A DNA stretch of 64,000 bases from a bacterium (GTDB taxonomy: Bacteria > SAR324 > JACQKK01). The DNA is taken from NCBI GenBank assembly GCA_965249525.1, contig OZ252237.1, positions 1,241,470 through 1,305,469 of the forward strand, given 5' to 3'. The notes under the pieces are model-generated. The model saw nothing but the letters and a program-made list of their open reading frames with translations. It ran no database searches and was not told the DNA's origin. Position 1 is the stretch's first letter. Each line of letters starts with the position of its first letter. This document shows positions 10,313 through 51,650 of the stretch, piece by piece. The position numbers and the translations under genes are program-made.

Positions 10313-10540
10313 CTGGCAGCAGCCTTTTTTGCAGCTGCTTGACTGCTAAAAAAAATATTATGCTATAATAGCACTTATACAAACTATTATGCTATAATAG
10401 CATTTAGCACAAAGCCAGATTGAACTAGCCAAGCTGTATTTATTATAAACTGGCTTTTAGCACAAACCCAGGCTATCTTGTAAGAGGCTATCTTGTAAGC
10501 TCGTGAGGCATACTATACTCAAACTTCTAAGGAGGAGATT
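10313..10540 (+). repeat. RCC1 cassette leader, copy L0 (terminator 3' half, duplicated TGCTATAAT, 2x AGGCTATCTTGTAAG, RBS)
   Basis: Matches the elements at 12002, 13563, 15136, 19575, 21163 and, inverted, 48350, 49862, 51477. Confidence 0.9.
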
Positions 10541-12004
10541 ATGAAAACTCTACAATCATCATATACTGTGCCGGGCGTCTTTGTCTTGCTGTTGTCGGCT
10601 GTGCTGCTAAGCCTTGCCAGCTGCGGCGGCGGAGGCGGCGGTGGAGGCGGCGGCGGTGACGACAGCAAGGTTGCCGACAACAGCCCTCCCGACACGCCCC
10701 CTCCCGACGTCACCCCTCCTCCCATCATTGAGCCTGAACCCCTACTAGCCATCTCAGCAGGGTGGGTTCACACTTGTGCCATTGTGGAGGGCAAAGCCTG
10801 GTGCTGGGGAAAGAACGCCAACGGCCAGCTGGGCAACAACAGCACCGATGAGAGCAATCTTCCTGTGGCTGTGGTGCAAACCCCTGCAGTTACCACCGTT
10901 GGCAGCGAAAAAGATGCCGTTCTGCTGGACAGCGGGGTCTCTGCCATCTCAGCAGGGGTTAGCCACACTTGTGCCATTCAGGAGGGTGCCGCCTTCTGCT
11001 GGGGGAGCAACACCAATAGACGGCTGGGCAACTCTTATGGGACCAGCAATGTTGCTGTGCCTATCAGCACGCTGGGCAGCGGGGTCACTGCCATCTCAGC
11101 AGGGGATCGGCACACTTGTGCCATTCATGCTGGCAAAGCCTGGTGCTGGGGGAGCATGCTCAATGGACGGCTGGGTAACAACATCGATGCCACCAGTGTT
11201 AATACGTTTAGCGGTGTTCCTATGGCTGTGATGCTAACCGCTGAAACCACTACCACCATTGGCGGCACCACCACCACCACCGCTGCCACATTCATGGAGG
11301 GTGATGTGGATGCCATCATCTCAGCAGGGAGGGATCACACTTGTGCCGTTCACCTGGAACAAGCCTACTGCTGGGGGAACGGCGACTATGGACGGCTGGG
11401 CAACGACACTACCGACCATAAAAGCCTAGCCACGCTTGTGGGAGCCGCTGGCAGCATGCTGGACAGCGGAGTCACTTCCATCTCAACAGGGAGTGACCAC
11501 ACTTGTGCCATTCACAATACTGCTAGCGGGGATGAAGATGATGCATTTGCCGCCAAGTGCTGGGGGCGCAACAACAGGGGTCAGCTGGGCAGAGAATTTG
11601 CGGTAAGTAGCACTACTGTTCTTTTAAGCCAAAGCGATATTCCCGTGCAGGTCACAGGGCTGGAAAACAATGTCACTGCCATCTCAGCAGCGACTAATCA
11701 CACTTGTGCCGTTCAAGCTGGCAAAGCCTGGTGCTGGGGTGATGAGAAACAGGATCAGCTGGGCGTAACCGACGCTTTATCTCCAAAGCTAAGCTATGTA
11801 CCCCTGGCTGTGGAAATCACCGATGGCGGCCCCCAGCTAAGCGGGGTCACTGACATCTCAGTAGGGCAATTTCACACTTGTGCGCTGCTTGACACTGGTG
11901 TTGTCCAATGCTGGGGGGGTAACGGCAATGGACAGCTGGGGGTTGGCGCGCTTGAAGGTGGTGATGCCACAACCTTCATACCCCAAACCCTGAGCTTTAA
12001 GTAA
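10541..12004 (+). CDS. RCC1-repeat (7-blade) lipoprotein g1
   Basis: MKTLQSSY leader, lipobox LASC + 11 Gly, seven HTCA..CWG..LG repeats, RBS AAGGAGG. Confidence 0.9.
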   Translation: MKTLQSSYTVPGVFVLLLSAVLLSLASCGGGGGGGGGGGDDSKVADNSPPDTPPPDVTPPPIIEPEPLLAISAGWVHTCAIVEGKAWCWGKNANGQLGNNSTDESNLPVAVVQTPAVTTVGSEKDAVLLDSGVSAISAGVSHTCAIQEGAAFCWGSNTNRRLGNSYGTSNVAVPISTLGSGVTAISAGDRHTCAIHAGKAWCWGSMLNGRLGNNIDATSVNTFSGVPMAVMLTAETTTTIGGTTTTTAATFMEGDVDAIISAGRDHTCAVHLEQAYCWGNGDYGRLGNDTTDHKSLATLVGAAGSMLDSGVTSISTGSDHTCAIHNTASGDEDDAFAAKCWGRNNRGQLGREFAVSSTTVLLSQSDIPVQVTGLENNVTAISAATNHTCAVQAGKAWCWGDEKQDQLGVTDALSPKLSYVPLAVEITDGGPQLSGVTDISVGQFHTCALLDTGVVQCWGGNGNGQLGVGALEGGDATTFIPQTLSFK

Positions 12005-12224
12005 CAACCCGCCCAACTAGCATCAAGGCTGCTGTCTGTAACCAGGCAGCAGCCTTTTTTGCAGCGTCCTGACTGCCAAAAAAAATATCCCCATACCCTA
12101 GCATTTGATACAAAGAGGGTGTATTATTATAAACTGGCTTTTGGTGCAAACCCAGGCTATCTTGTAAGAGGCTATCTTGTAAGCTCGTGAGGCATTCTAT
12201 ACTCACATTTCTAAGGAGAAAATT
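12002..12224 (+). repeat. RCC1 cassette leader L1 (extended -10 replaced by tatccccatacc)
   Basis: Same terminator and 15-bp repeats as other copies, but no TATAAT. Confidence 0.9.
12025..12060 (+). terminator. Intrinsic terminator, reiterated after cassette genes
   Basis: aaggctgctgtct-gtaacc-aggcagcagcctt stem with one G.U pair, followed by a T run. Confidence 0.85.
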
Positions 12225-13565
12225 ATGAAAACTCTACAATCATCATATACTGTACCGGGCCTGTTTGTCTTGCTGTTATCGGCTGTACTGCTAAGCCTTG
12301 CCAGCTGCGGCGGGGGTGGCGGCGGTGGCGGTAGCAACGGTGGCGGCAGCCCTGCCATAACAGTTAGTGCTATCTCAGCAGGGGATAGCCACACTTGTGC
12401 CATCCTCAGCACAGGCGCCGCCAAATGCTGGGGAGAGAACTTCAACGGCCAGCTGGGTGACGACAGCACCGATGACAGCAATCTTCCTGCGGCTGTGGTG
12501 CAAACCCCTGCCGATACTTCTGACACTGACTCTGATAAGCATACCTCTGCCGTTCTGCTGGACAGCGGGGTCACTGCCATCTCAGCAGGGTTGGTTCACA
12601 CTTGTGCCATTCATAATGGTGCCGCTAAGTGCTGGGGGTTCAACGGCAATGGACGGCTGGGTGACGGCTTCACCGATGACAGCCCTATTCCCGTGCAGGT
12701 TTCAGGGCTGACTAGCCAGGTCACTGCCATCTCAGCAGGGGGTGCTCACACTTGTGCCATTCACAATACTGCTGGCGAGGGTGAAACTGAGGCACTTGCC
12801 GCCAAATGCTGGGGGCTCAACGGCAATGGACAGCTGGGTGACGGCAGCAGCACTAAGAGGTTAACACCCGTGCAGGTTTCTGGGCTGGGCAACGGAGTCA
12901 TTGACATCTCAGCAGGGGAAGTTCACACTTGTGCCATTCACAGGACTACTGCTGGCAAGCATGCCGCCAAGTGCTGGGGGAGCAACAACAAGGGTCAGCT
13001 GGGCAACGGCGCTACTAGCGGCGAGCAAAATGCACCCGTGCCAGTTGGCGGCGAGCTAGGCGATCTGGTCACTGACATCTCAGCAGGGAATGCTCACACT
13101 TGTGCCATTCAAGATGGCAAAGCCTGGTGCTGGGGTGATAACAGCCTGGGTCAGCTGGGCAGAGTGCTTGGTGTATCTCTAATGGTAAGCGGTACACCCG
13201 AGGCTGTTGTGGACCCTACCAGTGACGGCAGAGACCAGCTAAGCGGGGTCACTGACATCTCAGCAGGGAGTGGTCACACTTGTGCGCTGCTTGCCAGCGG
13301 TGTTGTCCACTGCTGGGGGCTCAACAGCAATGGACAGCTGGGCGTCGACACCACCAGCACTGCAAGCAGCACTATTCCCCTGCAGGTTGAAGGGCTGGAA
13401 AGCCAGGTCACTGCCATCTCAGCAGGGGATGAGCACACTTGTGCACTGCTTGACAGCGGTGTTGTCCAATGCTGGGGGAGTAACGGCGATGGACAGCTGG
13501 GGGTTGGCACACTTTCAGGTGATGCTACCTCAAGCCCCACGCCCCAAGCCCTAAGCTTTGAGTAA
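12225..13565 (+). CDS. RCC1-repeat (7-blade) lipoprotein g2
   Basis: Same leader, LASC + 8 Gly, seven repeats. Confidence 0.9.
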   Translation: MKTLQSSYTVPGLFVLLLSAVLLSLASCGGGGGGGGSNGGGSPAITVSAISAGDSHTCAILSTGAAKCWGENFNGQLGDDSTDDSNLPAAVVQTPADTSDTDSDKHTSAVLLDSGVTAISAGLVHTCAIHNGAAKCWGFNGNGRLGDGFTDDSPIPVQVSGLTSQVTAISAGGAHTCAIHNTAGEGETEALAAKCWGLNGNGQLGDGSSTKRLTPVQVSGLGNGVIDISAGEVHTCAIHRTTAGKHAAKCWGSNNKGQLGNGATSGEQNAPVPVGGELGDLVTDISAGNAHTCAIQDGKAWCWGDNSLGQLGRVLGVSLMVSGTPEAVVDPTSDGRDQLSGVTDISAGSGHTCALLASGVVHCWGLNSNGQLGVDTTSTASSTIPLQVEGLESQVTAISAGDEHTCALLDSGVVQCWGSNGDGQLGVGTLSGDATSSPTPQALSFE

Positions 13566-13789
13566 CAACCCGCCCAACTAGCATCAAGGCTGCTGTCTGT
13601 AACCAGGCAGCAGCCTTTTTTGCAGCTGCTTGACTGCCAAAAAATGAATATCTATGCTATAATAGCATTTAGCACAAAGCAAGTGAATTGATTATAAACT
13701 GGCTTTTAGCACAAACCCGGGCTATCTTGTAAGAGGCTATCTTGTAAGCTCGTGAGGCAACCTATATTCACACTTCTAAGGAGGAGATT
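13563..13789 (+). repeat. RCC1 cassette leader L2
   Basis: Terminator, ATGCTATAATAGCAT palindrome, 2x15-bp repeat, AAGGAGG. Confidence 0.9.
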
Positions 13790-15127
13790 ATGAAAACTCT
13801 ACAATCATCATATACTGTGCCGGGCCTGTTTGTCTTGCTGTTATCGGTTGTGCTGCTAAGCCTTGCCAGCTGCGGTGGAGGTGGCGGCGGCGGTGGAGGC
13901 GGCACCCCTGCCATCGCTAAGCCTAAACCCCCAATAGATGCCATAGCCATCTCAGCAGGGGAAGAACACGCTTGTGCCGTTCTCAGCACAGGCGCCGCCA
14001 AGTGCTGGGGGCTCAACGGCAGTGGACGGCTGGGTGACGGCAGCAAAGCTGACAGGGATATTCCCGTGGCTGTCAGCACGCTGGGCAGCGGGGTCTCTGC
14101 CATCTCAGCAGGGAGTGAGCACACTTGTGCCATTCATAAGGGCGTCGCCAAGTGCTGGGGTTTTAACATATATGGTCAGCTGGGTGACGACAGCATCTCT
14201 GACAGCAATAGTCCCAAGAATGTCGCAGATCTAGGCAGCGGGGTCACTGCCATCTCAGCAGGGAATAGCCACACTTGTGCCATCCTCAGCACAGGTGCCG
14301 CCATGTGCTGGGGAAGTAACCAAAATGCCCAGCTGGGTAAAGGCACCGATATTCCATCCAGCACCACGCCTGTGGAGGTCACGAATCTGGGCAGCGGGGT
14401 CGAAAAAATCTCAGCAGGGGGGTCTCACACTTGTGCCATTCACAATACGGCTACGGCTAGCGTGAGTGACCCTACCCCTGACCCTGTACTTGCCGCCAAG
14501 TGCTGGGGAGATGACACAGAGGGTCAGCTGGGCGACGGCGACACCACCACTGGAGGCCCTACACCCGTGCAGGTTTCTGGGCTGGGCAGCGGAGTCATTG
14601 ACATCTCAGCAGGGCAAAATCACACTTGTGCCATTCACAATACTGCTGCCGAGGGTGAAACTGAGCAACTTGCCGCCAAGTGCTGGGGGAACGACGGCAA
14701 TGGACGGCTGGGCAACGGCAGTGGTGACTCCAATGCAAATGCACCCGTGGCAGTTAGCGGCGAGCTAAACAGCGGAGTCACTGACATCTCAGCAGGGTAT
14801 ACTCACACTTGTGCCGTTCAAGATGGTAAAGTCTGGTGCTGGGGTGATAACAGCCAGGGTCAGCTGGGCAGAGAGATTGCTGTAACATTTCTAACAGCGA
14901 ACCACCGTATACCCGTGGCTGTGGCAGCCAACGATTACATGGGAGACCCGCTAGACGACCAGCTAAGCGGGGTCACCGCCATCTCAGCAGGGCAATTTCA
15001 CACTTGTGCGCTGCTTGACAGCGGTGTTGTCCAATGCTGGGGGAGTAACGTCCAGGGACAGCTGGGGGTTGGCAAAGATCCTATTGATGACTCTACCGCC
15101 ACGCCCCAAACCGTGCGTGAACCCTAA
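13790..15127 (+). CDS. RCC1-repeat (7-blade) lipoprotein g3
   Basis: LASC + 10 Gly, seven repeats, ends TPQTVREP. Confidence 0.9.
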   Translation: MKTLQSSYTVPGLFVLLLSVVLLSLASCGGGGGGGGGGTPAIAKPKPPIDAIAISAGEEHACAVLSTGAAKCWGLNGSGRLGDGSKADRDIPVAVSTLGSGVSAISAGSEHTCAIHKGVAKCWGFNIYGQLGDDSISDSNSPKNVADLGSGVTAISAGNSHTCAILSTGAAMCWGSNQNAQLGKGTDIPSSTTPVEVTNLGSGVEKISAGGSHTCAIHNTATASVSDPTPDPVLAAKCWGDDTEGQLGDGDTTTGGPTPVQVSGLGSGVIDISAGQNHTCAIHNTAAEGETEQLAAKCWGNDGNGRLGNGSGDSNANAPVAVSGELNSGVTDISAGYTHTCAVQDGKVWCWGDNSQGQLGREIAVTFLTANHRIPVAVAANDYMGDPLDDQLSGVTAISAGQFHTCALLDSGVVQCWGSNVQGQLGVGKDPIDDSTATPQTVREP

Positions 15128-15135
15128 GCTTTAAG

Positions 15136-15362
15136 TAACAACCCGCCCAACTAGCATCAAGGCTGCTGTCTGTAACTAGGCAGCAGCCTTTTTTGCAGCG
15201 TCCTGACTGCCAAAAAATGAATATCTATGCTATAATAGCATTTAGCACAAAGCAAGTGAATTGATTATAAACTGGCTTTTAGCACAAACTCAGGCTATCT
15301 TGTAAGAGGCTATCTTGTAAGCTCGTGAGGCATTCTATACTCACATTTCTAAGGAGAAAATC
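15136..15362 (+). repeat. RCC1 cassette leader L3
   Basis: Near-identical to L2/L6. Confidence 0.9.
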
Positions 15363-16670
15363 ATGAAAACTCTACAATCATCATATACTGTACCGGGCGT
15401 CTTTGTCTTGCTGTTATCGGCTGTGCTGCTAAGCCTTGCCAGCTGCGGCGGCGGTGGCGGTAGCAACGGTGGCGGCAGCCCTGCCATAACAGTTAGTGCT
15501 ATCTCAGCAGGGAGTGAGCACACTTGTGCCATCCTCAGCACAGGCGCCGCCAAATGCTGGGGAGAGAACTTCAACGGCCAGCTGGGTGACGACAGCACCG
15601 ATGACAGCAATCTTCCTGCGGCTGTGGTGCAAACCCCTGCCGATACTTCTGACTCTGATAAGCATACCTCTGCCGTTCTGCTGGACAGCGGGGTCACTGC
15701 CATCTCAGCAGGGGGGGGTCACACTTGTGCCATTCATAATGGCGCCGCCAAGTGCTGGGGAAACAACGGACAGGGACGGCTGGGCGACGGCAGCGATACT
15801 GAAAGCAATATTCCCGTGGCTGTCGCAGATCTGGGCAGCGGGGTCACTGCCATCTCAGCAGGGGGTCAGCACACTTGTGCCGTTCACAATGGCGCCGCCC
15901 AGTGCTGGGGTTTAAACCGACTTGGTCAGCTGGGTGACGGCACCGGCATGGAAAGGCTCACACCCACGCAGGTTTCTGAGCTGGGCAGCGGAGTCATTGA
16001 CATCTCAGCAGGGCAAAATCACACTTGTGCCATTCACAATACTGGTACCGAAGATGACCCTGTACTTGCCGCCAAGTGCTGGGGGAGCAATTTCAGTGGC
16101 AAGCTGGGCGACGGCAGCGATACTGAAAGCAATATTCCCGTGGCTGTCGCAGATCTGGACAGCGATGTCACTGCCATCTCAGCAGGGGCTAACCACACTT
16201 GTGCCGTTCATAATGGCGCCGCCAAGTGCTGGGGGAGCGACAGCAAGGGGAAGCTGGGCAACGGCAGTAGTAAAACCCGCAATCAAACCGAACCCATGCT
16301 TGTGGGAGAAACTGGCAGCGAGCTAAGCAGCGGAGTCTCTGCCATCTCAGCAGGGAATCTTCACACTTGTGCCGTTCAAAATACTAAAGCCTGGTGCTGG
16401 GGTGATAACAGCATGGGTCAGCTGGGTGTAAACATTGCTATAACTGCAGCGGAAAGCCATAGACCCGTGGCTGTGGAAACCACCCTTGACGGCAAAATGA
16501 AGCTAAGCGGGGTCACTGCCATCTCAGCAGGGTTGGAGCACACTTGTGCGCTGCTTGCCACTGGCGTTGTCCAATGCTGGGGGAGTAACGTCCAGGGACA
16601 GCTGGGGGTTGGTGCACTTCCAGATGGTGATGCCACAACCCTCACGCCCCAAACCCTGAGCTTTAAGTAA
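15363..16670 (+). CDS. RCC1-repeat (7-blade) lipoprotein g4
   Basis: LASC + 5 Gly, seven repeats. Confidence 0.9.
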   Translation: MKTLQSSYTVPGVFVLLLSAVLLSLASCGGGGGSNGGGSPAITVSAISAGSEHTCAILSTGAAKCWGENFNGQLGDDSTDDSNLPAAVVQTPADTSDSDKHTSAVLLDSGVTAISAGGGHTCAIHNGAAKCWGNNGQGRLGDGSDTESNIPVAVADLGSGVTAISAGGQHTCAVHNGAAQCWGLNRLGQLGDGTGMERLTPTQVSELGSGVIDISAGQNHTCAIHNTGTEDDPVLAAKCWGSNFSGKLGDGSDTESNIPVAVADLDSDVTAISAGANHTCAVHNGAAKCWGSDSKGKLGNGSSKTRNQTEPMLVGETGSELSSGVSAISAGNLHTCAVQNTKAWCWGDNSMGQLGVNIAITAAESHRPVAVETTLDGKMKLSGVTAISAGLEHTCALLATGVVQCWGSNVQGQLGVGALPDGDATTLTPQTLSFK

Positions 16671-16807
16671 CAACCCGCCCAACTAGCATCAAGGCTGCTG
16701 TCTGTAACCAGGCAGCAGCCTTTTTTGCAGCGTCCTGACTGCCAAAAAATGAATATCTATGCTATAATAGCATTTAGCACAAAGCAAGTGAATTTATTAT
16801 AAACTGG
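16668..16807 (+). repeat. Truncated cassette leader L4, joined to the dapD upstream region
   Basis: Follows the consensus to ataaactgg, then diverges; promoter part retained, 15-bp repeats and RBS lost. Confidence 0.85.
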
Positions 16808-16843
16808 TTTTGGGTATTCTCCATTTGTTCGGCTGGCATCCCT

Positions 16844-17977
16844 ATGACCCCTGCCTTTGTTGACCACCTCCAGCAGCTTATTTTACTGCGCATACATTCG
16901 CAGCCAAACACCCTCGCTGTGGTGCCCAGACTGCCCCCAGAGTCGTTGTTCGCTGCCCTGCTGCCACTGTTGGCAGCCCCGTTGGCAGCCCCGCCTGCCA
17001 GCAGCAGCCATGACTCCCCCGTGCTGTGTCGTCTGGACTCCTCAAAGCTGAACAGTCTGCCTGCGGCGCAATTACGCACATTAGAAGCGCATGAGGGAAT
17101 AGCTGCCTTGCTGGCATCAAAGGCGCAATGGGAACAGGTGCAAGTGGAGGTGGTGCGTTCAAAGCGCGCGGGGCTGCTGGAGAGACTGAGTCAGCGACAA
17201 GGTGATGCAGCAGACACCCAAGCATTAATTGAATTGATGGACAGCGGTCAGGTGCGCTGTGCAGAGAAAGTGCGGGGAGTATGGCAGCCGCAGGCTTGGG
17301 TGATTCAGGGGGTGTTGAATTATTTTGCCACCCATGAAATGCAAGTGATGGAACGTGCAGGCTGGGACAAGATTCCCTTAAAGACTCAAGGTTGGGATGC
17401 AGCCCGCTTTGCAGCTGGGGGGGTGCGGTATGCCCCTGGTGCGGTGGTGCGCAAGGGTGCCTGGCTGGGGGCGGGTACGGTGGTGATGAGTCATACATTT
17501 GTGAATATAGGTGCTTGGGTGGGGGGCGAGGGGGTGATGCTGGACACAGGCTCGCGGGTGGCTTCTGCTGCCCAGGTGGGCAAGGGAGTAAAGCTGGGGG
17601 CTGGCAGTGGCTTGGAAGGTGTGTTGGAACCGGCTGGTCGTATGCCTACAATTGTAGAAGACCAGGTGCGCATTGGGGCGATGTGTGAAGCTGCAGGCAT
17701 TATTGAGGAAGGTGCGGTGCTGGCCAGCGGTGTGGTGATGGCTTCTGGCAAGAAAATATATGACGAAGCCACAGGCAAGCTCATTCCTCCCCTGCCCCTA
17801 ACAGTGGAGGGCGTGACCTACCAGCTGCCAGTGATTCCAGCCTGGCGCTTGGCTGTGGGCGGGGCCTTGGTATCCAACAACACCGCTACCGATGCGGTGA
17901 TTCTCAAACCTGGCGATTTGCGAGAACGTGGTACCCTGCGCCATTTTGAGCGTCAAGGTCTGCTGTACAGCCGATAA
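16844..17977 (+). CDS. dapD: Tetrahydrodipicolinate N-succinyltransferase with N-terminal extension
   Basis: LMDSGQVRCAEK, WDKIPLK, PGAVVRKGA, FVNIGAWV, GVLEP and hexapeptide repeats. Confidence 0.85.
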   Translation: MTPAFVDHLQQLILLRIHSQPNTLAVVPRLPPESLFAALLPLLAAPLAAPPASSSHDSPVLCRLDSSKLNSLPAAQLRTLEAHEGIAALLASKAQWEQVQVEVVRSKRAGLLERLSQRQGDAADTQALIELMDSGQVRCAEKVRGVWQPQAWVIQGVLNYFATHEMQVMERAGWDKIPLKTQGWDAARFAAGGVRYAPGAVVRKGAWLGAGTVVMSHTFVNIGAWVGGEGVMLDTGSRVASAAQVGKGVKLGAGSGLEGVLEPAGRMPTIVEDQVRIGAMCEAAGIIEEGAVLASGVVMASGKKIYDEATGKLIPPLPLTVEGVTYQLPVIPAWRLAVGGALVSNNTATDAVILKPGDLRERGTLRHFERQGLLYSR

Positions 17978-18159: not shown

Positions 18160-19401
18160 ATGACGGAATTGGTAATCAAAGTTCACACCCGATTGCTAAA
18201 ATTGTTGGAGTTGCTGGAGGGTGAGGGGGCGCAAACTGTATTAAAGCCCAAAAACTGGCGGCGCTGGATATTTTATGGGTCCCTATCCGCTTTGTTGCTG
18301 CATCCAGAGACTCGCAGGTTGTTGTTGGAAGTGCTGCGCAACACCTATTTGACGGTGGTGGTGTTTGTGGCAGCCACCTTGGCGATATTTTATTTTCTGG
18401 AGGATTGGTTTCGGGTGGATGTGGCGGCGTTGTTGCAGCGTCATCGTCGCATTCAGCCGATGATTGCTGCCTTAGTGGGGGCTTTGCCTGGATGCGGGGG
18501 GGCGATTATGGTGGTGACACAGTATGTGAAGGGGGGCATCAGTTTTGGGGCATTGATTGCGGTGTTGACTGCAACCATGGGAGATGCGGCGTTCTTGCTT
18601 TTGGCACGCAAGCCCTTGGTGGCATTGGGATTATTTGCTGTCGGTGCTTTGGTGGGGACTGTTACAGGGATGGTGGTGGATGCCATTCATGGACCTGATT
18701 TTCTGCGCAGCAAGAATGTGCCGCAGCACATCAGTACACAGCGGGATTTGTTGGCGCCGCAGCCCTTATTTGGTTTTGCTTGGTTGTTGGCATTGCTTCC
18801 TGGGTTGGTGTTGGGCTTGGCGGATGCGTTTCAGTTAAATCTTGACGGCTTGCTGGGATTTAGTGAAGGATTTTGGCTGCCTTCTATGGTGGTAGGAGTG
18901 GCAGGAGGCACTTTAAGCATGCTGATGTGGGATTTGCTGCCTTATCGCCAGCCTCCTGTGAAGCCCAAGGGTTGTCGGGTGGAACGAAAAGACATGTTCC
19001 GCTGGCAGTATGGTTCTACCATTAGCCGCATTGTGAATGACACCAACTTTGTTACCAAGTGGGTGGTGATGGCATTTTTGTTTTATGAGTTGTTGTTATT
19101 CTTTAGCGGGGTGGAGTTGGGGAATGTGTTTCGTTTGTGGGCGCCGTTGGTGCCGCTGGTTGCAGTGCTGATGGGCTTTATCCCTGGTTGTGGACCACAG
19201 GTGTTGGTAACAGCCCTGTATGTGGATGGCTTCATTCCGTTTTCTGCCCAGCTGGGCAATGCAATTAGCAATGATGGAGATGCCCTCTTCCCTGCTATTG
19301 CCATAGCCCCCAAGGCTTCTATTGTGGCCACCTTGTATAGTGCTATTCCTGCGGTGCTGATGTCATACGGTTGGTATTGGCTGTTTGAAAGGGGGGGATA
19401 G
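18160..19401 (+). CDS. Putative manganese/metal transporter (DUF2899-type permease)
   Basis: Two internal repeats with GALPGCGGAI and GFIPGCGPQV, TATMGDAAF, NAISNDGDALFP. Confidence 0.8.
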   Translation: MTELVIKVHTRLLKLLELLEGEGAQTVLKPKNWRRWIFYGSLSALLLHPETRRLLLEVLRNTYLTVVVFVAATLAIFYFLEDWFRVDVAALLQRHRRIQPMIAALVGALPGCGGAIMVVTQYVKGGISFGALIAVLTATMGDAAFLLLARKPLVALGLFAVGALVGTVTGMVVDAIHGPDFLRSKNVPQHISTQRDLLAPQPLFGFAWLLALLPGLVLGLADAFQLNLDGLLGFSEGFWLPSMVVGVAGGTLSMLMWDLLPYRQPPVKPKGCRVERKDMFRWQYGSTISRIVNDTNFVTKWVVMAFLFYELLLFFSGVELGNVFRLWAPLVPLVAVLMGFIPGCGPQVLVTALYVDGFIPFSAQLGNAISNDGDALFPAIAIAPKASIVATLYSAIPAVLMSYGWYWLFERGG

Positions 19402-19516
19402 CCACACTTGTGCCCTTCACAATGGCGCCGCCAAGTGCTGGGGGCGCAACTTAGGCAGGCGGGGCGACGGCAGCACCCATACCAGCAACAACCCCAAAAC
19501 CGTGTTGTTTGAATAA
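19394..19516 (+). pseudogene. Orphan last blade of a CARDB-RCC1-type gene
   Basis: Reads GDSHTCALHNGAAKCWGRNLGRRGDGSTHTSNNPKTVLFE*; the 3' end aaccgtgttgtttgaataagccgtggc matches the end of the 24464 gene. Confidence 0.85.
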
Positions 19517-19574
19517 GCCGTGGCGGGCTACTTATACAGCTGCGGGGGGCGGTTCCCCCTGCATCACACCGCCC

Positions 19575-19758
19575 TGGCAGCAGCCTTTTTTGCAGCGTCC
19601 TGACTGCCAAAAAATGAATATTATGCTATAATAACATTTAGCACAAAGCAAGTGAATTGATTATAAACTGGCTTTTGGTGCAAACCCAGGCTATCTTGTA
19701 AGAGGCTATCTTGTAAGCTCGTGAGGCATACTATATTCACACTTCTAAGGAGGAGATT
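19575..19758 (+). repeat. RCC1 cassette leader L5 (begins at terminator 3' half)
   Basis: ggcagcagcctttttt...tgctataat...2x15-bp repeat...AAGGAGG. Confidence 0.9.
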
Positions 19759-21165
19759 ATGAAAACTCTACAATCATCATATACTGTGCCGAGCGTGTTT
19801 GTCTTGCTGTTATCGGCTGTGCTGCTAAGCCTTGCCAGCTGCGGCGGGGGTGGAGGCGGCGGCGGTGGCAGCAGCAACGGCGGCAGCAGCGCTGCCATAA
19901 AAGTTAGTGCTATCTCAGCAGGGAATAGCCACACTTGTGCCATCCTCAGCACAGGCGCCGCCCAGTGCTGGGGAAATAACGCCACCGGCCAGCTGGGCAA
20001 CAACAGCACCGCTGAGAGCAATCTTCCTGTGGCTGTGGTGCAAACCCCTGCCGATACTTCTGACTCTGATAAGCATACCTCTGCCGTTCTGCTGGACAGC
20101 GGGGTCGATAAAATCTCAGCAGGGAGTGAGCACACTTGTGCCGTCCTCAGCACAGGCGCCGCCCAGTGCTGGGGGAGTAACGTGAATGGACGGCTGGGCA
20201 ACAGTGATACCGATGACAGCAGTACTCCCATGGATGTCACAGGGCTGAACAGCGAGGTCACTGCCATCTCAGCAGGGGGGCAGCACACTTGTGCCATTCA
20301 TGGTGGCGCCGCCTTCTGCTGGGGGAACATGAGCGATGGACGGCTGGGTAACAACATGAATCCCGCGGCTAGTGCTACGATTAAGCATAGCGATGTTCCT
20401 GTGGCTGTGCTGCTAACCGCTGAAACCACTACCACCAGTGGCGGCACCTCCACCACCACCGCTGCCACATTCATGGAGGGCGATGTGGATGCCATCATCT
20501 CAGCAGGGACTTTTCACACTTGCGCCGTTCACCTGGAAACAGCCTACTGCTGGGGGGCCGATGGCCATGGACGGCTGGGCAACGGCGCTGATATTACCGA
20601 CAATCAAGGCCTACCCACGCTTGTGGATGTGAGCGCGCTGGAGAGCGGAGTCATGATTAACATCTCAGCAGGGCTTCAGCACACTTGTGCCATTCACAGG
20701 ACTACTGCTGGCGGTGTTAATAAGGATGCCGCCTACTGCTGGGGGAGCAACAGCCATGGTCAGCTGGGCAACGGTGCTACTAGCGGCGAGCAAAATGCAC
20801 CCGTGCCAGTTGGCGGCGAGCTAGGCGATCTGGTCACTGACATCTCAGCAGGGGGGGTTCACACTTGTGCCATTCAAGATGGCAAAGCCTGGTGCTGGGG
20901 TAATAACAACCTGGGTCAGCTGGGCAGAGTGCTTGGTGTATCTCCAATGGTAAGCGGTACACCCGAGGCTGTGGCAACCACCGATGGCGGCAAACAGCTA
21001 AGCGGGGTCAATAAAATCTCAGCAGGGAACACTCACACTTGTGCGCTGCTTAACACTGGTGTTGTCCAATGCTGGGGGAGTAACGGACAGGGACGGCTGG
21101 GGGTTGGCGCGCTTGAAGGTGGTGATGCCACAACCTTCACGCCCCAAACCCTGAGCTTTAAGTAA
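19759..21165 (+). CDS. RCC1-repeat (7-blade) lipoprotein g5
   Basis: LASC + 9 Gly, seven repeats. Confidence 0.9.
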   Translation: MKTLQSSYTVPSVFVLLLSAVLLSLASCGGGGGGGGGSSNGGSSAAIKVSAISAGNSHTCAILSTGAAQCWGNNATGQLGNNSTAESNLPVAVVQTPADTSDSDKHTSAVLLDSGVDKISAGSEHTCAVLSTGAAQCWGSNVNGRLGNSDTDDSSTPMDVTGLNSEVTAISAGGQHTCAIHGGAAFCWGNMSDGRLGNNMNPAASATIKHSDVPVAVLLTAETTTTSGGTSTTTAATFMEGDVDAIISAGTFHTCAVHLETAYCWGADGHGRLGNGADITDNQGLPTLVDVSALESGVMINISAGLQHTCAIHRTTAGGVNKDAAYCWGSNSHGQLGNGATSGEQNAPVPVGGELGDLVTDISAGGVHTCAIQDGKAWCWGNNNLGQLGRVLGVSPMVSGTPEAVATTDGGKQLSGVNKISAGNTHTCALLNTGVVQCWGSNGQGRLGVGALEGGDATTFTPQTLSFK

Positions 21166-21389
21166 CAACCCTTCCCGCCACCACCAAGGCTGCTGTCTGT
21201 AACCAGGCAGCAGCCTTTTTTGCAGCGTCCTGACTGCCAAAAAATGAATATCTATGCTATAATAGCATTTAGCACAAAGCAAGTGAATTGATTATAAACT
21301 GGCTTTTGGTGCAAACCCAGGCTATCTTGTAAGAGGCTATCTTGTAAGCTCGTGAGGCAACCTATATTCACACTTCTAAGGAGGAGATT
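21163..21389 (+). repeat. RCC1 cassette leader L6
   Basis: Matches L2/L3 apart from the left terminator flank. Confidence 0.9.
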
Positions 21390-22751: not shown

Positions 22752-22785
22752 GCTTTGAGTAACAACCCGCCTAACTAGCATCAAG

Positions 22786-22819
22786 GCTGCTGATTGCTGG
22801 TGCATTCTAACTGCTTCAG
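22786..22819 (+). repeat. Left arm of 34-bp inverted repeat (partner 24416-24449)
   Basis: gctgctgattgctggtgcattctaactgcttcag; 33/34 to the reverse complement of the partner. Confidence 0.9.
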
Positions 22820-37897: not shown

Positions 37898-38587
37898 ATG
37901 CAAACCCACCTCTGGTCTCAGTCTATCTCAGTAAAATCAAGCAGGGGGCATCAAGCACTCCTGCTGTTGGCAGCCCTGCTGCTGCCCTCCCTCATACTGT
38001 TCTCCTGTGGAGGCAGTGGAGGAGGCGGCGGCGGAGACAAAACAGCAGCAGCCCCTCCCCCAGACCCCATTTATCTGTGGACAACAACAACCTCAGATCA
38101 CACGGGCAATTTGGGCGGAATAGTTGAAGCAAATAAGGTATGCGCTAACGATACCGCCAAGATAGCTGCTTTGCCAGATTTGCCAACGGGTGTTACTTAT
38201 ACCCATCAGGCAGTACTGGCTGATGCTGGATCTCATCCCAGCAGCATTATACCCAGTTCGGACACCAATCAAGTCCAGCGTCCTGACGGCACCAAAATTG
38301 CTGAAAACTACCAAGCTTTTGCAGGCAGCACTGCTAATGTGGATGCTGGCGTGACAAGCAATAGCATTGAATACTGGACTGGCTTACAGCCTGACTCTGA
38401 CTCTGGCACATTTACTACTCCTCCTGGTTCTCACTGCAGCAATTGGAGCAACGAAGAAACATCAGGGAGCGGTTTTATTGGACTTTCTCAAGAGGCCGGC
38501 TCGGGTAGATTAGGCCGCCGTGGAGTTTCTTTCTGCAATAGCACGCACCATCTTTTGTGCATCAGTCACACTCCTCCTACTGAGTGA
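37898..38587 (+). CDS. DUF1554-like lipoprotein P2
   Basis: AGGAG RBS, MQTHLWSQ leader, LFSC, same Cys/Trp pattern. Confidence 0.75.
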   Translation: MQTHLWSQSISVKSSRGHQALLLLAALLLPSLILFSCGGSGGGGGGDKTAAAPPPDPIYLWTTTTSDHTGNLGGIVEANKVCANDTAKIAALPDLPTGVTYTHQAVLADAGSHPSSIIPSSDTNQVQRPDGTKIAENYQAFAGSTANVDAGVTSNSIEYWTGLQPDSDSGTFTTPPGSHCSNWSNEETSGSGFIGLSQEAGSGRLGRRGVSFCNSTHHLLCISHTPPTE

Positions 38588-46852: not shown

Positions 46853-48349
46853 TTAAAATAGACGCAGCCGTCCCCAAGAGGGACTGTTTTCTTCTATGTC
46901 TTTGGCGGTGTTGGTGAGACGGCGCAGTCCGCTGCCATCAATGGCTACCACATAGAGTTTGAATTCACCACTGCGCCGTGAAGCAAACACAATCTGGCGG
47001 CCGTCTGGCGACCATTCTGCTTGCTCGCAGTTGTATGCGCCTTTTGTCACCGCTCGTAGATTCTGACCAAAGTCATCCATGATGTAAATCTGATCCACCC
47101 CTTTTTCCCGCCTGGTAAAGAGAATGTTTTGCCCATCGGGACTCCATTTGGGATCTGTGTTGTAGATGCTGTCAAAGCTCAGGCGCAGTTCACGACGAGT
47201 CTTTAAGTTCAATACATACACCTGCGGGCCGCCAGAGCGATCGGAAATATACACCAACTGGCTGCCATCGGGACTCCAATCTGGCTGGATCTCAATGCCC
47301 TCCCGTTGGGTAACACGATGGGGTTTGGAGATTTTTTTCTTGTACAGGTTCAAAAAGAACAGATCGATGTTTTCATCCATACTCATGGTAAATGCCAGCC
47401 GTTTGCCATTGCGTGAGAATGAACCACCTGTGTTTAAGCTGCCGAAATCGGTAAGGTAGCCGCTGCGCCTGCCTGTTCCAGCCAACTTCTGGTAGTAAAT
47501 GCGACTGCCTTTGAGAGAAAGCACGGTATAGATGATGGCATGGGTATCCGGTGTCAGGCGCGGCAAGATAGAAATGTTCTTGTTGCGAGAAATAATTTGA
47601 GGTCTGGTGCCGTGGGTATCGGTGGCGGCAATCACGGTTTTCCGTCCTGTCTGCTTCATGGCAAAGACAATGGTGGAGCCCAGCATTCCCCGTGTGCCCG
47701 TTAGACGCTTCGCCAACTGGTTGACCAATTCCATCACCGTCAATTCACGCAAACCTTGTTTTAAGTGAAAACCACGCTCAAACAACAGCAGCCCCTCAGG
47801 ACCAGCATCAAACACCTGCACGCGTACCAGTTTGCCATCTGTACTCAACTTCATGTACATATCCACCCGCAAACTTTGCTTGACCGGGCAGTAGCGTCTG
47901 CTGCTTTTGGCTATGCTGCTTTTGGCTATGCTGCTTTTGGCTATGCTGCTTTTGGCTATGCTGCTTTTGGCTATGCTGCTTTTAGCTAAATTGAACAGTC
48001 CGCTCCAACACAGGTTGCGTTTCAATAAGTCTTGAAATTTAACAAAATCCTGCTGCGCCCTGGCTGCCAGGACTTTTTTGCTTGGCAGCACTTCCAGCTG
48101 CAGTGACAGCCTGGCGAATCCCAGACCTTCTATCAAAATATCCTCTGCGGGATCCTGCTTGCCTGAAGGAGGCGCATAAGGCAGTGGCTGCGGCGGGCGC
48201 ACTACCTTGCTTAACCTGGCAGACTGTGCCCAGCCTGCACCCCCGCCCACCACACACAGCAACAACCACAACAAAACACTGCGCCCCACACAGCCTGACC
48301 GCAAACCGCAGCCCTGCCAAGAAAAAGCTCTCACTTGTTGCATCAACAT
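46853..48349 (-). CDS. tolB: Tol-Pal system propeller TolB, with AKSSI repeat insertion
   Basis: PD40 repeats PDWSPDG, PKWSPDG, EWSPDG; location in the tol cluster. Confidence 0.88.
   Translation of the reverse strand: MLMQQVRAFSWQGCGLRSGCVGRSVLLWLLLCVVGGGAGWAQSARLSKVVRPPQPLPYAPPSGKQDPAEDILIEGLGFARLSLQLEVLPSKKVLAARAQQDFVKFQDLLKRNLCWSGLFNLAKSSIAKSSIAKSSIAKSSIAKSSIAKSSRRYCPVKQSLRVDMYMKLSTDGKLVRVQVFDAGPEGLLLFERGFHLKQGLRELTVMELVNQLAKRLTGTRGMLGSTIVFAMKQTGRKTVIAATDTHGTRPQIISRNKNISILPRLTPDTHAIIYTVLSLKGSRIYYQKLAGTGRRSGYLTDFGSLNTGGSFSRNGKRLAFTMSMDENIDLFFLNLYKKKISKPHRVTQREGIEIQPDWSPDGSQLVYISDRSGGPQVYVLNLKTRRELRLSFDSIYNTDPKWSPDGQNILFTRREKGVDQIYIMDDFGQNLRAVTKGAYNCEQAEWSPDGRQIVFASRRSGEFKLYVVAIDGSGLRRLTNTAKDIEENSPSWGRLRLF
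47899..47988. repeat. 15-bp tandem repeat x6 inside tolB
   Basis: tgctgcttttggcta units. Confidence 0.95.
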
Positions 48350-48562
48350 TAGCTTACAAGACAGCCTCTTACAAGATAGCCTGGGTTTGCACCAAAAACC
48401 AGTTTCTAATAAATACAGCCTGGCTAATTCAGCTTGGCTAATTTACCTGGCTTGGTGCTAAATGCTATTATAGCATAATTTTTTTTGGCAGTCAGGACAC
48501 TGCAAAAAAGGCTGCTGCCTGGTTACAGACAGCAGCCTTGATGCTAGTTGGGCGGGTTGTTA
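48350..48562 (-). repeat. Cassette leader L8, directly upstream of the tolB start
   Basis: Terminator, CTGACT-N17-TATAAT, 15-bp repeats, then ATGTTGATGCAA. Confidence 0.9.
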
Positions 48563-49861
48563 CTCAAAGCTCAGGGTTTGGGGCACGGAGGTTGAGGTAT
48601 CAGGCTCGCTGTCAGCATCATCACCATCTGCAAGCTCGCCAACCCCCAGCCGTCCATTGTTGTTGGCACCCCAGCATTTGGCAACGCCGCTGTGAAGCGC
48701 ACAAGTGTGCAAATTCCCTGCTGAGATGGCAGTGACATCGTTTTCCAGCCCGTCAACCTGCACGGGAATATTGCTGGTGGTGGTGCTGGTGGCGACGCCC
48801 AGCTGACCATTGCTGTTACTCCCCCAGCACTTGGCGGCGCCCTTGTGAACCACACAAGTGTGAAATTGCCCTGCTGAGATTTTGGCATCGGCATCGACTT
48901 CCAGCAAGGCTTCATCGATAGAGTTGTCAGGGTCGGCAACGGTTTGCACCACAGCCACAGGAACCAGACTTTGAGTGATTTTGCCGTTACCCAGCCGTCC
49001 ACTGCCGTTGTTCCCCCAGCACCAGGCTTTGCCCTCCACAATGGCACAAGTGTGAGAAATCCCTGCTGAGATGATGGCATTGACATCGCTAGTCAGCACG
49101 TCAACCTGCACAGGCGTCTTGCGGTTATTATTATCTACAATACTGAAACCAACGTCAAAAGTGGTAACGGTGCCGTCACCCAGCTTGCCATTGCCATTGC
49201 TCCCCCAGCACTTGGCGACGCCATTATGAATGGCACAAGTGTGGCTACTCCCTGCTGAGATGGCAGTGACATCGCTAGTCAGCCCTGTGACCTGCACGGG
49301 AGTAGTGTTGCTACTCACTTCTTTGCCCAGCTGACCAAATTGATTACTCCCCCAGCACTTGGCGGCGCCACCATGAATGGCACAAGTGTGAGCACCCCCT
49401 GCTGAGATGGCAGTGACCCCACTGCCCAGCGTGCTGACAGCCATGGGAGTACTGCTGTCATCGGTATTACCTCTGCCCAGCTGTCCATCGCCGCCGTACC
49501 CCCAGCACTGGGCGGCGCCTGTGCTGAGGACGGCACAAGTGTGACCCGCCGCTGAGATGGCAGTGACCCCACTGCCCAGCGTGCTGACAGCCACAGGAAG
49601 ATTGCTGTCAGTGCCGCTCTCTTTGTTGCCCAGCTGGCCGCTGGCGTTATGTCCCCAGCACCAGGCTTTGCCCTCCACCATGGCACAAGTGTGACTTTGC
49701 CCTGCTGTAATAGCACTAGCCGTTAACGGTATGGCAGCACTGCCGCCGCCGCTGCCGCCGCCACCACCGCCCCCGCCGCAGCTGGCAAGGCTTAGCAGTA
49801 CAGCCGACAACAGCAAGACAAACAGGCTTGGCGCAGCATATAATGATTTTAGATTTTTCAT
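48560..49861 (-). CDS. RCC1-repeat (7-blade) lipoprotein g7
   Basis: MKNLKSLY leader, LASC + Gly, seven repeats. Confidence 0.9.
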   Translation of the reverse strand: MKNLKSLYAAPSLFVLLLSAVLLSLASCGGGGGGGGSGGGSAAIPLTASAITAGQSHTCAMVEGKAWCWGHNASGQLGNKESGTDSNLPVAVSTLGSGVTAISAAGHTCAVLSTGAAQCWGYGGDGQLGRGNTDDSSTPMAVSTLGSGVTAISAGGAHTCAIHGGAAKCWGSNQFGQLGKEVSSNTTPVQVTGLTSDVTAISAGSSHTCAIHNGVAKCWGSNGNGKLGDGTVTTFDVGFSIVDNNNRKTPVQVDVLTSDVNAIISAGISHTCAIVEGKAWCWGNNGSGRLGNGKITQSLVPVAVVQTVADPDNSIDEALLEVDADAKISAGQFHTCVVHKGAAKCWGSNSNGQLGVATSTTTSNIPVQVDGLENDVTAISAGNLHTCALHSGVAKCWGANNNGRLGVGELADGDDADSEPDTSTSVPQTLSFE

Positions 49862-50105
49862 GATCTCCTCCTTAGAAGTGTGAATATAGAATGCCTCACG
49901 AGCTTACAAGATAGCCTCTTACAAGATAGCTTCTTGCAAGATAGCCTGGATTTGCACCAAAAGCCAGTTTCTAATAAATTCACTTGCTTTGGTGTAAGTG
50001 TTATTATAGCATAATATTTTTTCTTTGGCAGTCAGGACGCTGCAAGAAAAAAGGCTGCTGCCTGGTTACAGACAGCAGCCTTTATGCTAGTTGGGCGGGT
50101 TGTTA
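49862..50105 (-). repeat. Cassette leader L9 (three 15-bp units)
   Basis: Reverse complement of the consensus element. Confidence 0.9.
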
Positions 50106-51476
50106 CTCCTCAAAGCTCACGGTTTGGGGCGTGGAGGTTGAGGTATCAGCATCGCTGTCAGCATCATCACCATCTGGAAGCTCGCCAACCCCCAGCCGTC
50201 CATTGGTGTTTTCACCCCAGCATTTGAAAACGCCGCTGTGAATGGCACAAGTGTAATTAATCCCTGCTGAGATGGCAGTGACATCGCTGTCCAGCAGAAC
50301 GGCATCAGTAGGGTTGCCATCAGAGTCGGTACCGGCAGGGGTTTGCACCACAGTCACAGGCTCATTGCTGACAAATCCAGGAGTGCTGCTTTTGGCGACG
50401 CCCAGCTGGCCGAAGGAGTTACTTCCCCAGCACTTGGCGGCACCACCATGAATGGCACAAGTGTGAAACTCCCCTGCTGAGATGGCAGTGACACCGCTAG
50501 TCAGGTCTGTGACCTGCACAGGCGTGGTTTTGTCCTTATCAATTCCCACGACACCAACAGTGGTAGTCTCGCTGTTACCCAGCTTGCCATTTTCGTTGTT
50601 CCCCCAGCACTTGGCGGCGCCATCGTGAACGGCACAAGTGTGCTCCACCCCTGCTGAGATGGCATCGACCTTGCTAGTCAGGTCTGTGACCTGCACGGGT
50701 GTAAAGCCGCTGCTGTCGTCGTCGCCGTCGCCCAGCTGACCCTCTGTGTCATCTCCCCAGCACTTGGCGGCGCCCTTGTGAACGGCACAAGTGTGATTAG
50801 CCCCTGCTGAGATGGCAGTGACATCGCTGTTTAGCTTGTCGGCAGTGGTTCCCACAAGCACGGGTACAGTTTGATCGGCGGTAGCAGCGGTGCCCAGCCG
50901 TCCATCGGTAAATTGCCCCCAGCAATAGGCGGCCTTATTTACAATCGCACAAGTGTGCCTATCCGCTGCTGAGATGGCAGTGACAAGGTTGTTCAGCGGA
51001 GAGCTGAGAGCCCCAGGAATCTTCCTGTCAGGGCTGGCGGTGAAACCCAGCCGTCCATTGCTGCCGAACCCCCAGCACCAGGCGGCGTCATCTACAATCG
51101 CACAAGTGTGCCTCTCCCCTGCTGAGATGGCAGTGACCCCGCTGTCCAGATTTGTGACCTTCTTGGGAGTACTGCTGTCAACGGCACCACCGATGCCCAG
51201 CCGTCCACTGCCGTTGTTCCCCCAGCACTGGGCGGCAAGTACCTCAGCTTCACCCTCGGCAGCAGTATTGTGAATGGCACAAGTGTGCTTCTCCCCTGCT
51301 GAGATAGTAGTACCACTTATTATGGGAGTGTCGTCGCCGCCGTTGCCGGGGTCAGCGACGACGCCGCCGTTGCCACCACCGCCGCCACCGCCGCAGCCGG
51401 CAAGGCTTAGCAGGGCAACCGAAAACAGCAGAACAAACATGTTCGGTGTAGTATATAATGATTTTAGATTTTTCAT
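50103..51476 (-). CDS. RCC1-repeat (7-blade) lipoprotein g8
   Basis: LAGC + Gly, seven repeats. Confidence 0.9.
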   Translation of the reverse strand: MKNLKSLYTTPNMFVLLFSVALLSLAGCGGGGGGGNGGVVADPGNGGDDTPIISGTTISAGEKHTCAIHNTAAEGEAEVLAAQCWGNNGSGRLGIGGAVDSSTPKKVTNLDSGVTAISAGERHTCAIVDDAAWCWGFGSNGRLGFTASPDRKIPGALSSPLNNLVTAISAADRHTCAIVNKAAYCWGQFTDGRLGTAATADQTVPVLVGTTADKLNSDVTAISAGANHTCAVHKGAAKCWGDDTEGQLGDGDDDSSGFTPVQVTDLTSKVDAISAGVEHTCAVHDGAAKCWGNNENGKLGNSETTTVGVVGIDKDKTTPVQVTDLTSGVTAISAGEFHTCAIHGGAAKCWGSNSFGQLGVAKSSTPGFVSNEPVTVVQTPAGTDSDGNPTDAVLLDSDVTAISAGINYTCAIHSGVFKCWGENTNGRLGVGELPDGDDADSDADTSTSTPQTVSFEE

Positions 51477-51650
51477 GATCTTCTCCTTAGAAGTTTGAAT
51501 ATAAAATGCCTCACGGGTTTACAAAACAGCCTCTTACAAGATAGCCTCTTACAAGATAGCCTGGATTTGCACCAAAAGCCAGTTTCTAATAAATTCACTT
51601 GCTTTGGTGTAAGTGTTATTATAGCATACTTTTGTGCAAGTGCTATGATA
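51477..51650 (-). repeat. Cassette leader L10 (no terminator; follows tolA)
   Basis: TATGCTATAAT, three 15-bp units, AAGGAG. Confidence 0.85.

Follow-up and report, generated by a model that had tools for sequence, protein, structure and literature searches.

How should a bacterial chromosome be read in which gene after gene, all coding for lipoproteins of one fold, stands behind the same leader? The case arises in the window, our term for the whole 64,000-nucleotide (nt) stretch of contig OZ252237.1 (positions 1,241,470 to 1,305,469; GenBank assembly GCA_965249525.1), from a bacterium of the SAR324 lineage, that was analysed here. An earlier note on this DNA had described eight genes for RCC1 lipoproteins behind a reiterated ~220-bp element, called the leader or module below, and had taken them for a repertoire packaged in cassettes that grow and move by recombination through this leader. 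We found the description to be accurate and the interpretation about half right, and the earlier proposal is partly supported. The element is the family's own intergenic region together with the 5' coding end, not a dispersed or mobile element, because it was found only beside genes of this one paralog family and was missing from the other genomes and collections searched. With moderate confidence, we consider the genes to be a lineage-specific family of seven-blade RCC1 lipoproteins whose arrays have grown by unequal crossover, whose modules are homogenised by conversion and whose spread to new places is rare and illegitimate.

The eight lipoprotein genes were borne out. They are intact open reading frames (ORFs) of 433-487 codons, six on the plus and two on the minus strand. 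Pfam RCC1/RLD models were run on two representatives: gene 1 (10541-12004) scored 229 bits with PF25390 (cut-off 150) and 170 bits with PF00415 (cut-off 21.7), and gene 7 (48560-49861) gave similar scores, above the curated cut-offs. Exactly seven C-W-G blade motifs, spaced by 49-77 residues, were counted in each of the 13 family proteins, including those of the five family genes outside the window, and on this count the proteins are predicted to be seven-blade RCC1-type propellers. The signal peptides of all eight window genes are near-identical and follow the pattern MK(T/N)L..(V/M)F(V/L)LL(L/F)S(A/V)(V/A)LLSLA(S/G)-C, then a Gly run; the five genes outside the window have a hydrophobic stretch and a lipobox in common with them and differ in their N-termini. 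The family signal peptides match the lipobox pattern [LVI][ASTVI][GAS]C, which marks the products as predicted lipoproteins, and we infer an outer-membrane or surface location for them. The closest solved structures were UVR8 (E = 7e-42), the HERC2 RLD, RCC1 and the bacterial BLIP-II of Streptomyces (2.5e-22), which the family proteins resemble in sequence and in having seven blades. Unlike these known propellers, they carry a predicted lipid anchor at the N-terminal Cys and a Gly-rich tether, and the resemblance does not imply a guanine-nucleotide exchange factor or photoreceptor role. Variability was highest in the loop following C-W-G and at the two residues preceding the conserved H-T-C, which we take to correspond to UVR8's GWRHT positions, located on its interaction face. 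The Gly tether after the lipobox Cys is encoded by GGN runs, giving ~5 to 12 Gly depending on the paralog, and its length is probably prone to slippage.

The reiterated leader was likewise confirmed, with motif counts far above chance. At two mismatches or fewer, the 15-mer AGGCTATCTTGTAAG matched 19 times where 0.09 matches were expected; the palindrome ATGCTATAATAGCAT gave 18 strand-hits (0.07 expected) and the terminator arm with its T-run, GGCAGCAGCCTTTTTTGCAG, nine matches (0.03 expected). The terminator hairpin AAGGCUGCUGUCUG-UAAC-CAGGCAGCAGCCUU, followed by U6, folds with -28.4 kcal/mol (z = -6.0). From 5' to 3', the module consists of this terminator, CTGCCA-N17/18-TGcTATAAT, a ~125-nt 5' untranslated region (5'UTR) with two or three 15-mers, AAGGAG(G) and ATG, and it would accordingly serve as terminator for the upstream gene, extended -10 promoter, 5'UTR, Shine-Dalgarno sequence and signal peptide. 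The self-contained gene units of the earlier note agree with this order, a strong predicted terminator being combined with a putative TGnTATAAT promoter at seven of the eight genes. The claim that a complete element precedes each gene stood for most copies, the exceptions being the copy before 12225, where TATAAT is lost, the copy at 10315, with half a terminator, and that of the gene at 51476, which has none; the first copy of each array has an incomplete terminator. The palindrome is present, but imperfect in three copies and doubled in the copy before 10541. Eleven full or partial copies were counted in the window, including those before tolB and dapD, in agreement with the ~11 reported. 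Their length differences all fall at homopolymers or short tandem repeats, namely the T-run, the A-run, a 14-mer (0-3 copies) and the 15-mer (1-3 copies). The distance from (C/T)TGACT to TATAAT, with a run of A6-A8 in between, ranges from 17 to 22 nt among copies, and the canonical 17-nt CTGACT-TATAAT spacing occurs only in the tolB leader copy. Folding of the 5'UTR was no better than that of shuffles (z +0.8 and +1.2), indicating that it is unstructured, and an Rfam scan of it matched no family; a regulatory RNA or riboswitch in the 5'UTR was ruled out on these two results.

The module proved to be private to the family. The window lies in a single 1.72-Mb contig, and a BLAST search of the module against this genome, a check that the earlier note had named, returned the 11 window copies and nine further matches at 511-555 kb. 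The latter, mostly partial (terminator-only or signal-peptide-only), surround the five further family genes, ~700 kb from the window. Leader motifs were found nowhere else in the genome, every copy adjoining family genes. The comparison with related genomes, also named in the note, gave no such extension: leader DNA is absent from 30 relatives, among them the only same-genus genome. A scan of metagenome contigs of the Joint Genome Institute with leader 19-mers gave two matches only, both unrelated chance hits, and the leader was absent from the viral contigs and phage records searched. A phage origin of the leader was rejected on the latter absence, and a regulon-wide operator on the finding of the palindrome and 15-mer only in family leaders. 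A dispersed repeat or mobile element, such as a repetitive extragenic palindrome, a miniature inverted-repeat transposable element or an insertion sequence, was also rejected, all copies adjoining family genes and no Y1 transposase being present. RCC1 proteins as such occur in 17 of 31 genomes of the family and order, and a contig search with the RCC1 protein matched only distant RCC1 proteins of other phyla. No same-species strains turned up in the searches made: of 5.8 billion proteins, none is more than 67% identical to the ArsP_2 neighbour, and an exact look-up of TolA found nothing. The genome has ~24 RCC1 genes, 13 of them with the lipobox leader; the remainder include larger CARDB-RCC1 proteins, four of which are encoded in or at the edge of the window.

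Along the unit, conservation is concentrated at the junctions between genes. In pairwise comparisons of the eight window units, identity averages ~0.90 from -110 to +100, 0.5-0.8 in the bodies and 0.8-0.92 in the last 100 nt plus terminator, and the family therefore has a conserved 5'UTR and signal-peptide region with a variable mature part. For the core copies, the p-distance of the 5'UTR is 0.02-0.08, compared with a proportion of synonymous differences (pS) of 0.11-0.28 in the bodies, the synonymous sites of a gene pair having diverged 3-25 times as much as its leader. For example, gene 7 (start at 49861) and the gene at genome position 541901 have a leader distance of 0.7% and a body pS of 0.18. 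Gene 7 shares 99% leader identity with the gene at genome 540579-541901 and ~92% body identity with the one at genome 542151-543461. Over all copies, leaders differ by 2-35% and bodies by 8-50%. Because the unstructured 5'UTR evolves several-fold more slowly than synonymous sites, homogenisation is the best explanation for the leader, and conversion, rather than selection, would be what keeps it uniform. Identical tracts of 130-221 nt were also found in the bodies, where overall alignment identity is only 79-88% (runs of this kind have an approximate probability of 1e-10 to 1e-11). Trees of leaders and bodies disagree as well: the gene at 543461 groups with array 1, on the plus strand of the window, by its leader (98/100 support) and with 49861/541901 by its body (100/100), and the leader grouping was rejected by the body data in an approximately unbiased (AU) test (p-AU 0.00025). 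Taken together, these results point to gene conversion and unequal crossover as the processes that shape the family. Of the recombination through the leader that had been proposed, one part therefore stands, leader and body recombining apart as the incongruent trees and the contrast in divergence suggest, but not dispersal by that route.

Selection and age were judged against the sister species. The ratio of nonsynonymous to synonymous divergence (dN/dS) in the bodies is 0.63-1.59, with a mean of about 1; for 149 ordinary orthologs shared with the sister species, the median ratio of nonsynonymous to synonymous differences (pN/pS) is 0.35 and the median pS is 0.75, which is saturated. All ORFs are intact, and diversifying selection is therefore favoured over decay as the cause of body divergence. 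The paralog pS of 0.09-0.43 is far below that of the orthologs, which argues for a lineage-specific expansion; by this measure, the family would have expanded and dispersed, or have been homogenised, after the split from the sister species.

Under the explanation that we favour, the arrays would arise by tandem duplication through unequal crossover between the conserved inter-gene modules. Gene conversion would preserve near-identity in the modules and at the 3' ends of the genes, and the propeller bodies would diverge fast at loop positions and swap segments. Pieces of an array would rarely be copied to new places by non-site-specific (illegitimate or ectopic) recombination, and an insertion in an operon or before an essential gene would survive only if it ended with a promoter. 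Several points weigh against this explanation. Taken by itself, the short leader alignment fails to reject the body topology (p-AU 0.146), and the tree groups tested were named post hoc, after the trees had been seen. Aligning shuffled blades may inflate both pS and pN, and relaxed constraint is another possible cause of a dN/dS near 1, even though none of the 13 ORFs is broken and each has seven blades. The uniformity of the leader could also be due to strong purifying selection instead of conversion. The left ends at 10315 and 19576 start at the same base of the terminator 3' arm and the right end at 22792 lies in the 5' arm; such half-hairpin ends are more regular than random illegitimate recombination predicts and hint at a hairpin-guided process. 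Finally, promoter and terminator function and ongoing recombination are themselves inferred from the letters of the DNA.

The spread of the family became visible when the whole 1.6-Mb genome of the sister species was compared (991 reciprocal best hits, median identity 63%). In the sister species, tolQ-tolR-tolA-tolB-cpoB-hisD are contiguous, and in a family-level outgroup one long ORF that includes tolB comes immediately after tolR, which leaves no room for an RCC1 gene. Since neither genome has RCC1 genes there, the two RCC1 units between tolA and tolB were inserted into the tol-pal operon. The sister species also has dapD, arsP and DAO side by side, whereas the window has four RCC1 genes ahead of the dapD-like gene and two more between arsP and DAO. 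The junctions uninterrupted in the sister species and occupied here comprise tolA-tolB, arsP-DAO, DAGK-hemF and three further ones, and genes of the lipoprotein family are present at at least four junctions that are intact there (tolA-tolB, arsP-DAO and two more), in line with the expandable, spread family of the earlier note. Six of the 16 RCC1-containing intervals are clean insertions between sister-species neighbours and ten lie at synteny breaks, compared with breaks at 227 of 971 (23%) other intervals (Fisher p = 0.001). This enrichment implies that the family can reshape a small genome, and it appears to shape gene order in the present one of 1.7 Mb. Between DAGK and hemF sits the CARDB-RCC1 gene 29406-31447. 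This gene is split into the overlapping ORFs 29406-30653 and 30545-31447, and would be either a frameshifted pseudogene or the product of a sequencing error. Three tandem genes for RCC1 lipoproteins of ~850 aa in the sister species, ~95% identical along leader and body, stand behind an unrelated leader; the trio is best taken as an independent, younger expansion of the same kind.

An insertion upstream of tolB or the dapD-like gene would be polar unless it bore a promoter, because every unit ends in a strong predicted terminator. Both trailing partial leaders, before tolB and before the dapD-like gene, have indeed kept a perfect palindrome and TATAAT, and they probably now drive these two genes. 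We suggest that 'promoter-out' insertions have been selected. Such selection would account for the right-hand junctions inside the leader, and leader-mediated transposition is not needed.

Nor do the junctions resemble those of a site-specific system. On the 5' side, homology ends against non-family DNA at query positions 47, 78, 94, 215, 242 and 272, and on the 3' side at 36, 56, 64, 147 and 191. The earlier note's statement that no integrase or transposase is nearby held true, a domain search among the window ORFs having found none. The genome has no Y1 transposase and just two tyrosine recombinases, which lie at 914.6 kb and 1494.9 kb, both at least 190 kb from any copy. A hairpin-dependent transposase was ruled out, there being no Y1_Tnp in the genome. 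The variable junctions and the lack of a nearby recombinase argue against a site-specific cassette, and an integron-like one was rejected on the absence of an integron integrase, the predicted own promoter of each unit and the variable junctions. Packaging in cassettes as a defined mobile unit, and movement through the shared leader as the route of dispersal, were consequently not borne out: junctions lie at many leader positions, no recombinase is associated and the element occurs only with this gene family. A remnant after arsP is 93% identical to the 3' end of the CARDB-RCC1 gene 24464-26932, and inverted 30-nt copies of an RCC1 3' flank, 97% identical, stand on either side of DAO, at 22790-22819 and 24416-24445. 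These bracketing copies and the remnant on the arsP side would be traces that recombination has left between two RCC1 subfamilies, the lipoprotein type and the CARDB type.

Other explanations have to be set against this one. Tandem duplications that are old and static, with a leader kept uniform by purifying selection at every base and without recombination, are unlikely. In their favour, the leader contains functional elements (promoter, Shine-Dalgarno sequence, signal peptide), and the three-gene RCC1 array of the sister species, ~95% identical throughout, looks like plain recent duplication; against this, divergence in a ~125-nt 5'UTR that is predicted to be unstructured is far below that of synonymous sites, the trees of leaders and bodies disagree, diverged bodies contain long identical tracts, and the copy before 12225 has no -10 box yet is otherwise homogenised. 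An assembly artefact, which the earlier note had named as a possible refutation, is very unlikely, indeed next to negligible. Repeated units of 1.5 kb are hard to assemble, but every unit is distinct, the copies differing from one another to the extent given above, all ORFs are intact, the genome is one contig and unique housekeeping genes stand between the sub-arrays. True mobile cassettes that recombine at the terminator hairpin or palindrome, leave as circles and re-insert elsewhere, a chromosomal counterpart of phage PeSL (promoter-early stem-loop) or integron cassettes, seem highly improbable. They would fit the half-hairpins that bound array 1 (3' arm at 10315 and 19576, 5' arm at 22792) and the entry of family genes into at least four otherwise collinear junctions, and terminator-promoter cassettes do mediate shuffling and mini-circles in T4-type phages (PMC2839356). 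The other junctions, however, lie at many different leader positions, no mobility gene is nearby and the genome has only the two tyrosine recombinases; the element never occurs without a family gene, and none of the other genomes and collections searched contains it. Hairpins are, moreover, general hot spots for breakage and template switching.

A small but real chance is left to programmed phase or antigenic variation, in which slippage of the A-run or of the 15-mer/14-mer, or a regulator at the palindromic -10, switches the RCC1 genes and cells display different subsets. The A-run with its variable spacing, the confinement of leader length differences to homopolymers and short repeats and the body dN/dS of about 1 are all compatible with it, and vlp genes use such a promoter-spacer tract (PMC2268961). 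On the other hand, the -10 is of the extended TGn type and CTGCCA lies at 17-18 nt, so that promoter strength may not depend on the A-run. The 15-mers come after the predicted start site, in a 5'UTR without predicted structure, and since unrelated tandem repeats of 12-17 nt fill the window, in spacers and genes alike, no special function has to be assumed for them. The A-run in the promoter spacer may still play a part in phase variation. More far-reaching, and distinctly doubtful, is the idea that the module is a combined recombination and expression platform, a cellular PeSL counterpart with hairpin-guided loop-out, re-insertion with an outward promoter and switching by the A-run and 15-mers; if it were true, the population would wear an ever-changing combinatorial coat of propeller lipoproteins, and essential genes such as tolB would have been wired to the same promoter.

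Comparison with described systems suggests that the family belongs to a known kind of variable lipoprotein families, represented by Mycoplasma vsp and vlp, the Borrelia genes behind the upstream homology box and Staphylococcus aureus lpl. The vsp (M. bovis), vpma (M. agalactiae) and vlp (M. hyorhinis) families combine a conserved 5'UTR and signal peptide with a variable mature lipoprotein, and in vlp a homopolymer tract lies between the -35 and -10 boxes of the promoter that each gene carries (PMC2268961). The present family shares with them the multigene clusters in a small genome, the conserved 5' region and the variable mature part, and with vlp the predicted own promoter of each gene and an A6-A8 run in the spacer, whose length differs between paralogs. 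It differs in having a seven-blade RCC1 propeller instead of a repetitive extended protein, in its host, an uncultivated diderm environmental bacterium, and, compared with vsp and vpma, in having no adjacent site-specific recombinase. In Borrelia burgdorferi, the ospE/ospF-related (Erp) lipoproteins have a common 'upstream homology box' and bodies that vary and recombine (Marconi et al. 1996; Sung et al. 2000; both cited in PMC10016077). The conserved upstream promoter and leader and the variable, recombining coding bodies are alike, whereas erp genes lie on cp32 prophage plasmids and the genes here are chromosomal, tandem and interleaved with housekeeping genes; the folds are unrelated. The S. 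aureus lpl genes are tandem paralogs that undergo homologous recombination between conserved segments, the unit being a 3' end, a spacer and the next 5' end (Tsuru and Kobayashi 2008, PMC2568036). The same 3' end, spacer and 5' end form the conserved block here, but in lpl the conserved segment lies in mid-ORF and the junction is variable, while here the junction is conserved and the middle variable. In the PeSL of T4-type phages, a terminator hairpin and a sigma70 promoter lie between non-essential genes, and recombination shuffles the genes (Arbiol et al. 2010, PMC2839356). These terminator-promoter units, to which a stem-loop and sigma70-type promoter between genes correspond here in sequence, are the closest described mechanism to the earlier proposal; there, however, phage genomes and unrelated ORFans are involved and mini-circles were shown experimentally, whereas here the unit flanks a single paralog family on a cellular chromosome. 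The conflict between leader and body trees would agree with recombination between such units.

The mechanism itself is already known, unequal crossover, gene conversion and diversifying selection being textbook processes. What the locus adds is a clear and well-delimited multigene family of variable lipoproteins outside the classical pathogens, built on an RCC1 propeller scaffold, and an expanding, recombining and probably individually transcribed lipoprotein repertoire. That some two dozen RCC1 genes are kept in a 1.7-Mb genome, with dN/dS of ~1, argues that the family proteins face a changing partner, such as a phage, a grazer, a host or neighbouring cells. The two terminator-bearing genes inserted in tol-pal offer a natural example of a paralog family rewiring essential genes, with a predicted donated promoter before tolB. 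Of moderate interest are therefore the RCC1 scaffold in a reduced genome and the tol-pal insertion with its putative donated promoter.

Table 1 Features of the RCC1 lipoprotein family, its leaders and its neighbours. Positions are those of the window, except for the sister-species trio, which is given by its own locator.
Feature	Position	Strand	Remarks
RCC1 lipoprotein gene 1	10541..12004	+	487 aa, 7 blades
RCC1 lipoprotein gene 2	12225..13565	+	446 aa
RCC1 lipoprotein gene 3	13790..15127	+	445 aa
RCC1 lipoprotein gene 4	15363..16670	+	435 aa
RCC1 lipoprotein gene 5	19759..21165	+	468 aa
RCC1 lipoprotein gene 6	21390..22751	+	453 aa
RCC1 lipoprotein gene 7	48560..49861	-	433 aa
RCC1 lipoprotein gene 8	50103..51476	-	457 aa; most diverged copy
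Leftmost leader	10315..10540	+	terminator 3' arm and T-run only, two TATAAT palindromes, 'long' 5'UTR variant, 2 x 15-mer, AAGGAG
Leader	12005..12224	+	terminator intact, -10/palindrome degenerate (CCATACCCTAGCAT), TATAAT lost
Full leader, reference copy	13566..13789	+	terminator 13586-13619, CTGCCA-N18-TGcTATAAT, ~125 nt 5'UTR, 2 x 15-mer, AAGGAGG
Full leader	15128..15362	+	
Partial leader before dapD-like gene	16671..16811	+	terminator, promoter (predicted), first ~40 nt of 5'UTR; ends 32 nt upstream of gene
Leader	19576..19758	+	starts at terminator 3' arm, same start point as copy at 10315
Full leader	21166..21389	+	
Array 1 right end	22752..22792	+	terminator 5' arm only; 36-nt stub 22757-22792
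Partial leader before tolB	48350..48559	-	full terminator, perfect palindrome, 14-mer x3, 2 x 15-mer, without family ribosome-binding site
Full leader	49862..50102	-	3 x 15-mer
Leader without terminator	51477..51640	-	begins ~35-46 nt past tolA stop
GGN tether runs	10623-10656, 13872-13903, 21472-21519, 49742-49779		
dapD-like hexapeptide acyltransferase	16844..17977	+	housekeeping; sister-species ortholog without RCC1 gene nearby
ArsP_2 / putative manganese transporter	18160..19401	+	directly followed by DAO in sister species
CARDB-RCC1-type remnant	19380..19535	+	last blade and stop; the 155 nt that follow arsP
CARDB-RCC1 genes	185-2629, 24464-26932, 29406-31447, one ending at 164		
tolB	46853..48349	-	start codon abuts 15-mers of partial leader
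tolA-like, TonB_2 C-terminal domain	51675..52325	-	tolB directly after in sister species
Sister RCC1 trio	G001:C1:1376000-1392000 (L046)		genes at 3668, 6769, 9803

Several smaller observations were made along the way. A gene for a 273-aa protein at genome 543626-544447, which has no sister-species ortholog, travels with the RCC1 pair inserted at 540-543 kb. In the tol region, no Pal gene was found between tolB and the TPR (CpoB-like) gene, and three OmpA-family paralogs lie in a row upstream of tolQ (window 53602-56108), one of which may be the Pal equivalent. Short tandem repeats are found in the N-terminal part of tolB, where six perfect in-frame 15-nt units (47899-47988) encode AKSSI x6, and unrelated ones occur with 15-nt units at 36484-36550 and 44309-44373 and with a 16-nt unit at 52335-52391; the genome seems prone to repeats of ~15 nt. 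The window also holds two pairs of DUF1554 lipoprotein-like paralogs, at 37012-38587 and 57061-58814, and a 201-nt unit present twice with 97% identity (36679-37080) lies just upstream of the first pair and extends into it.

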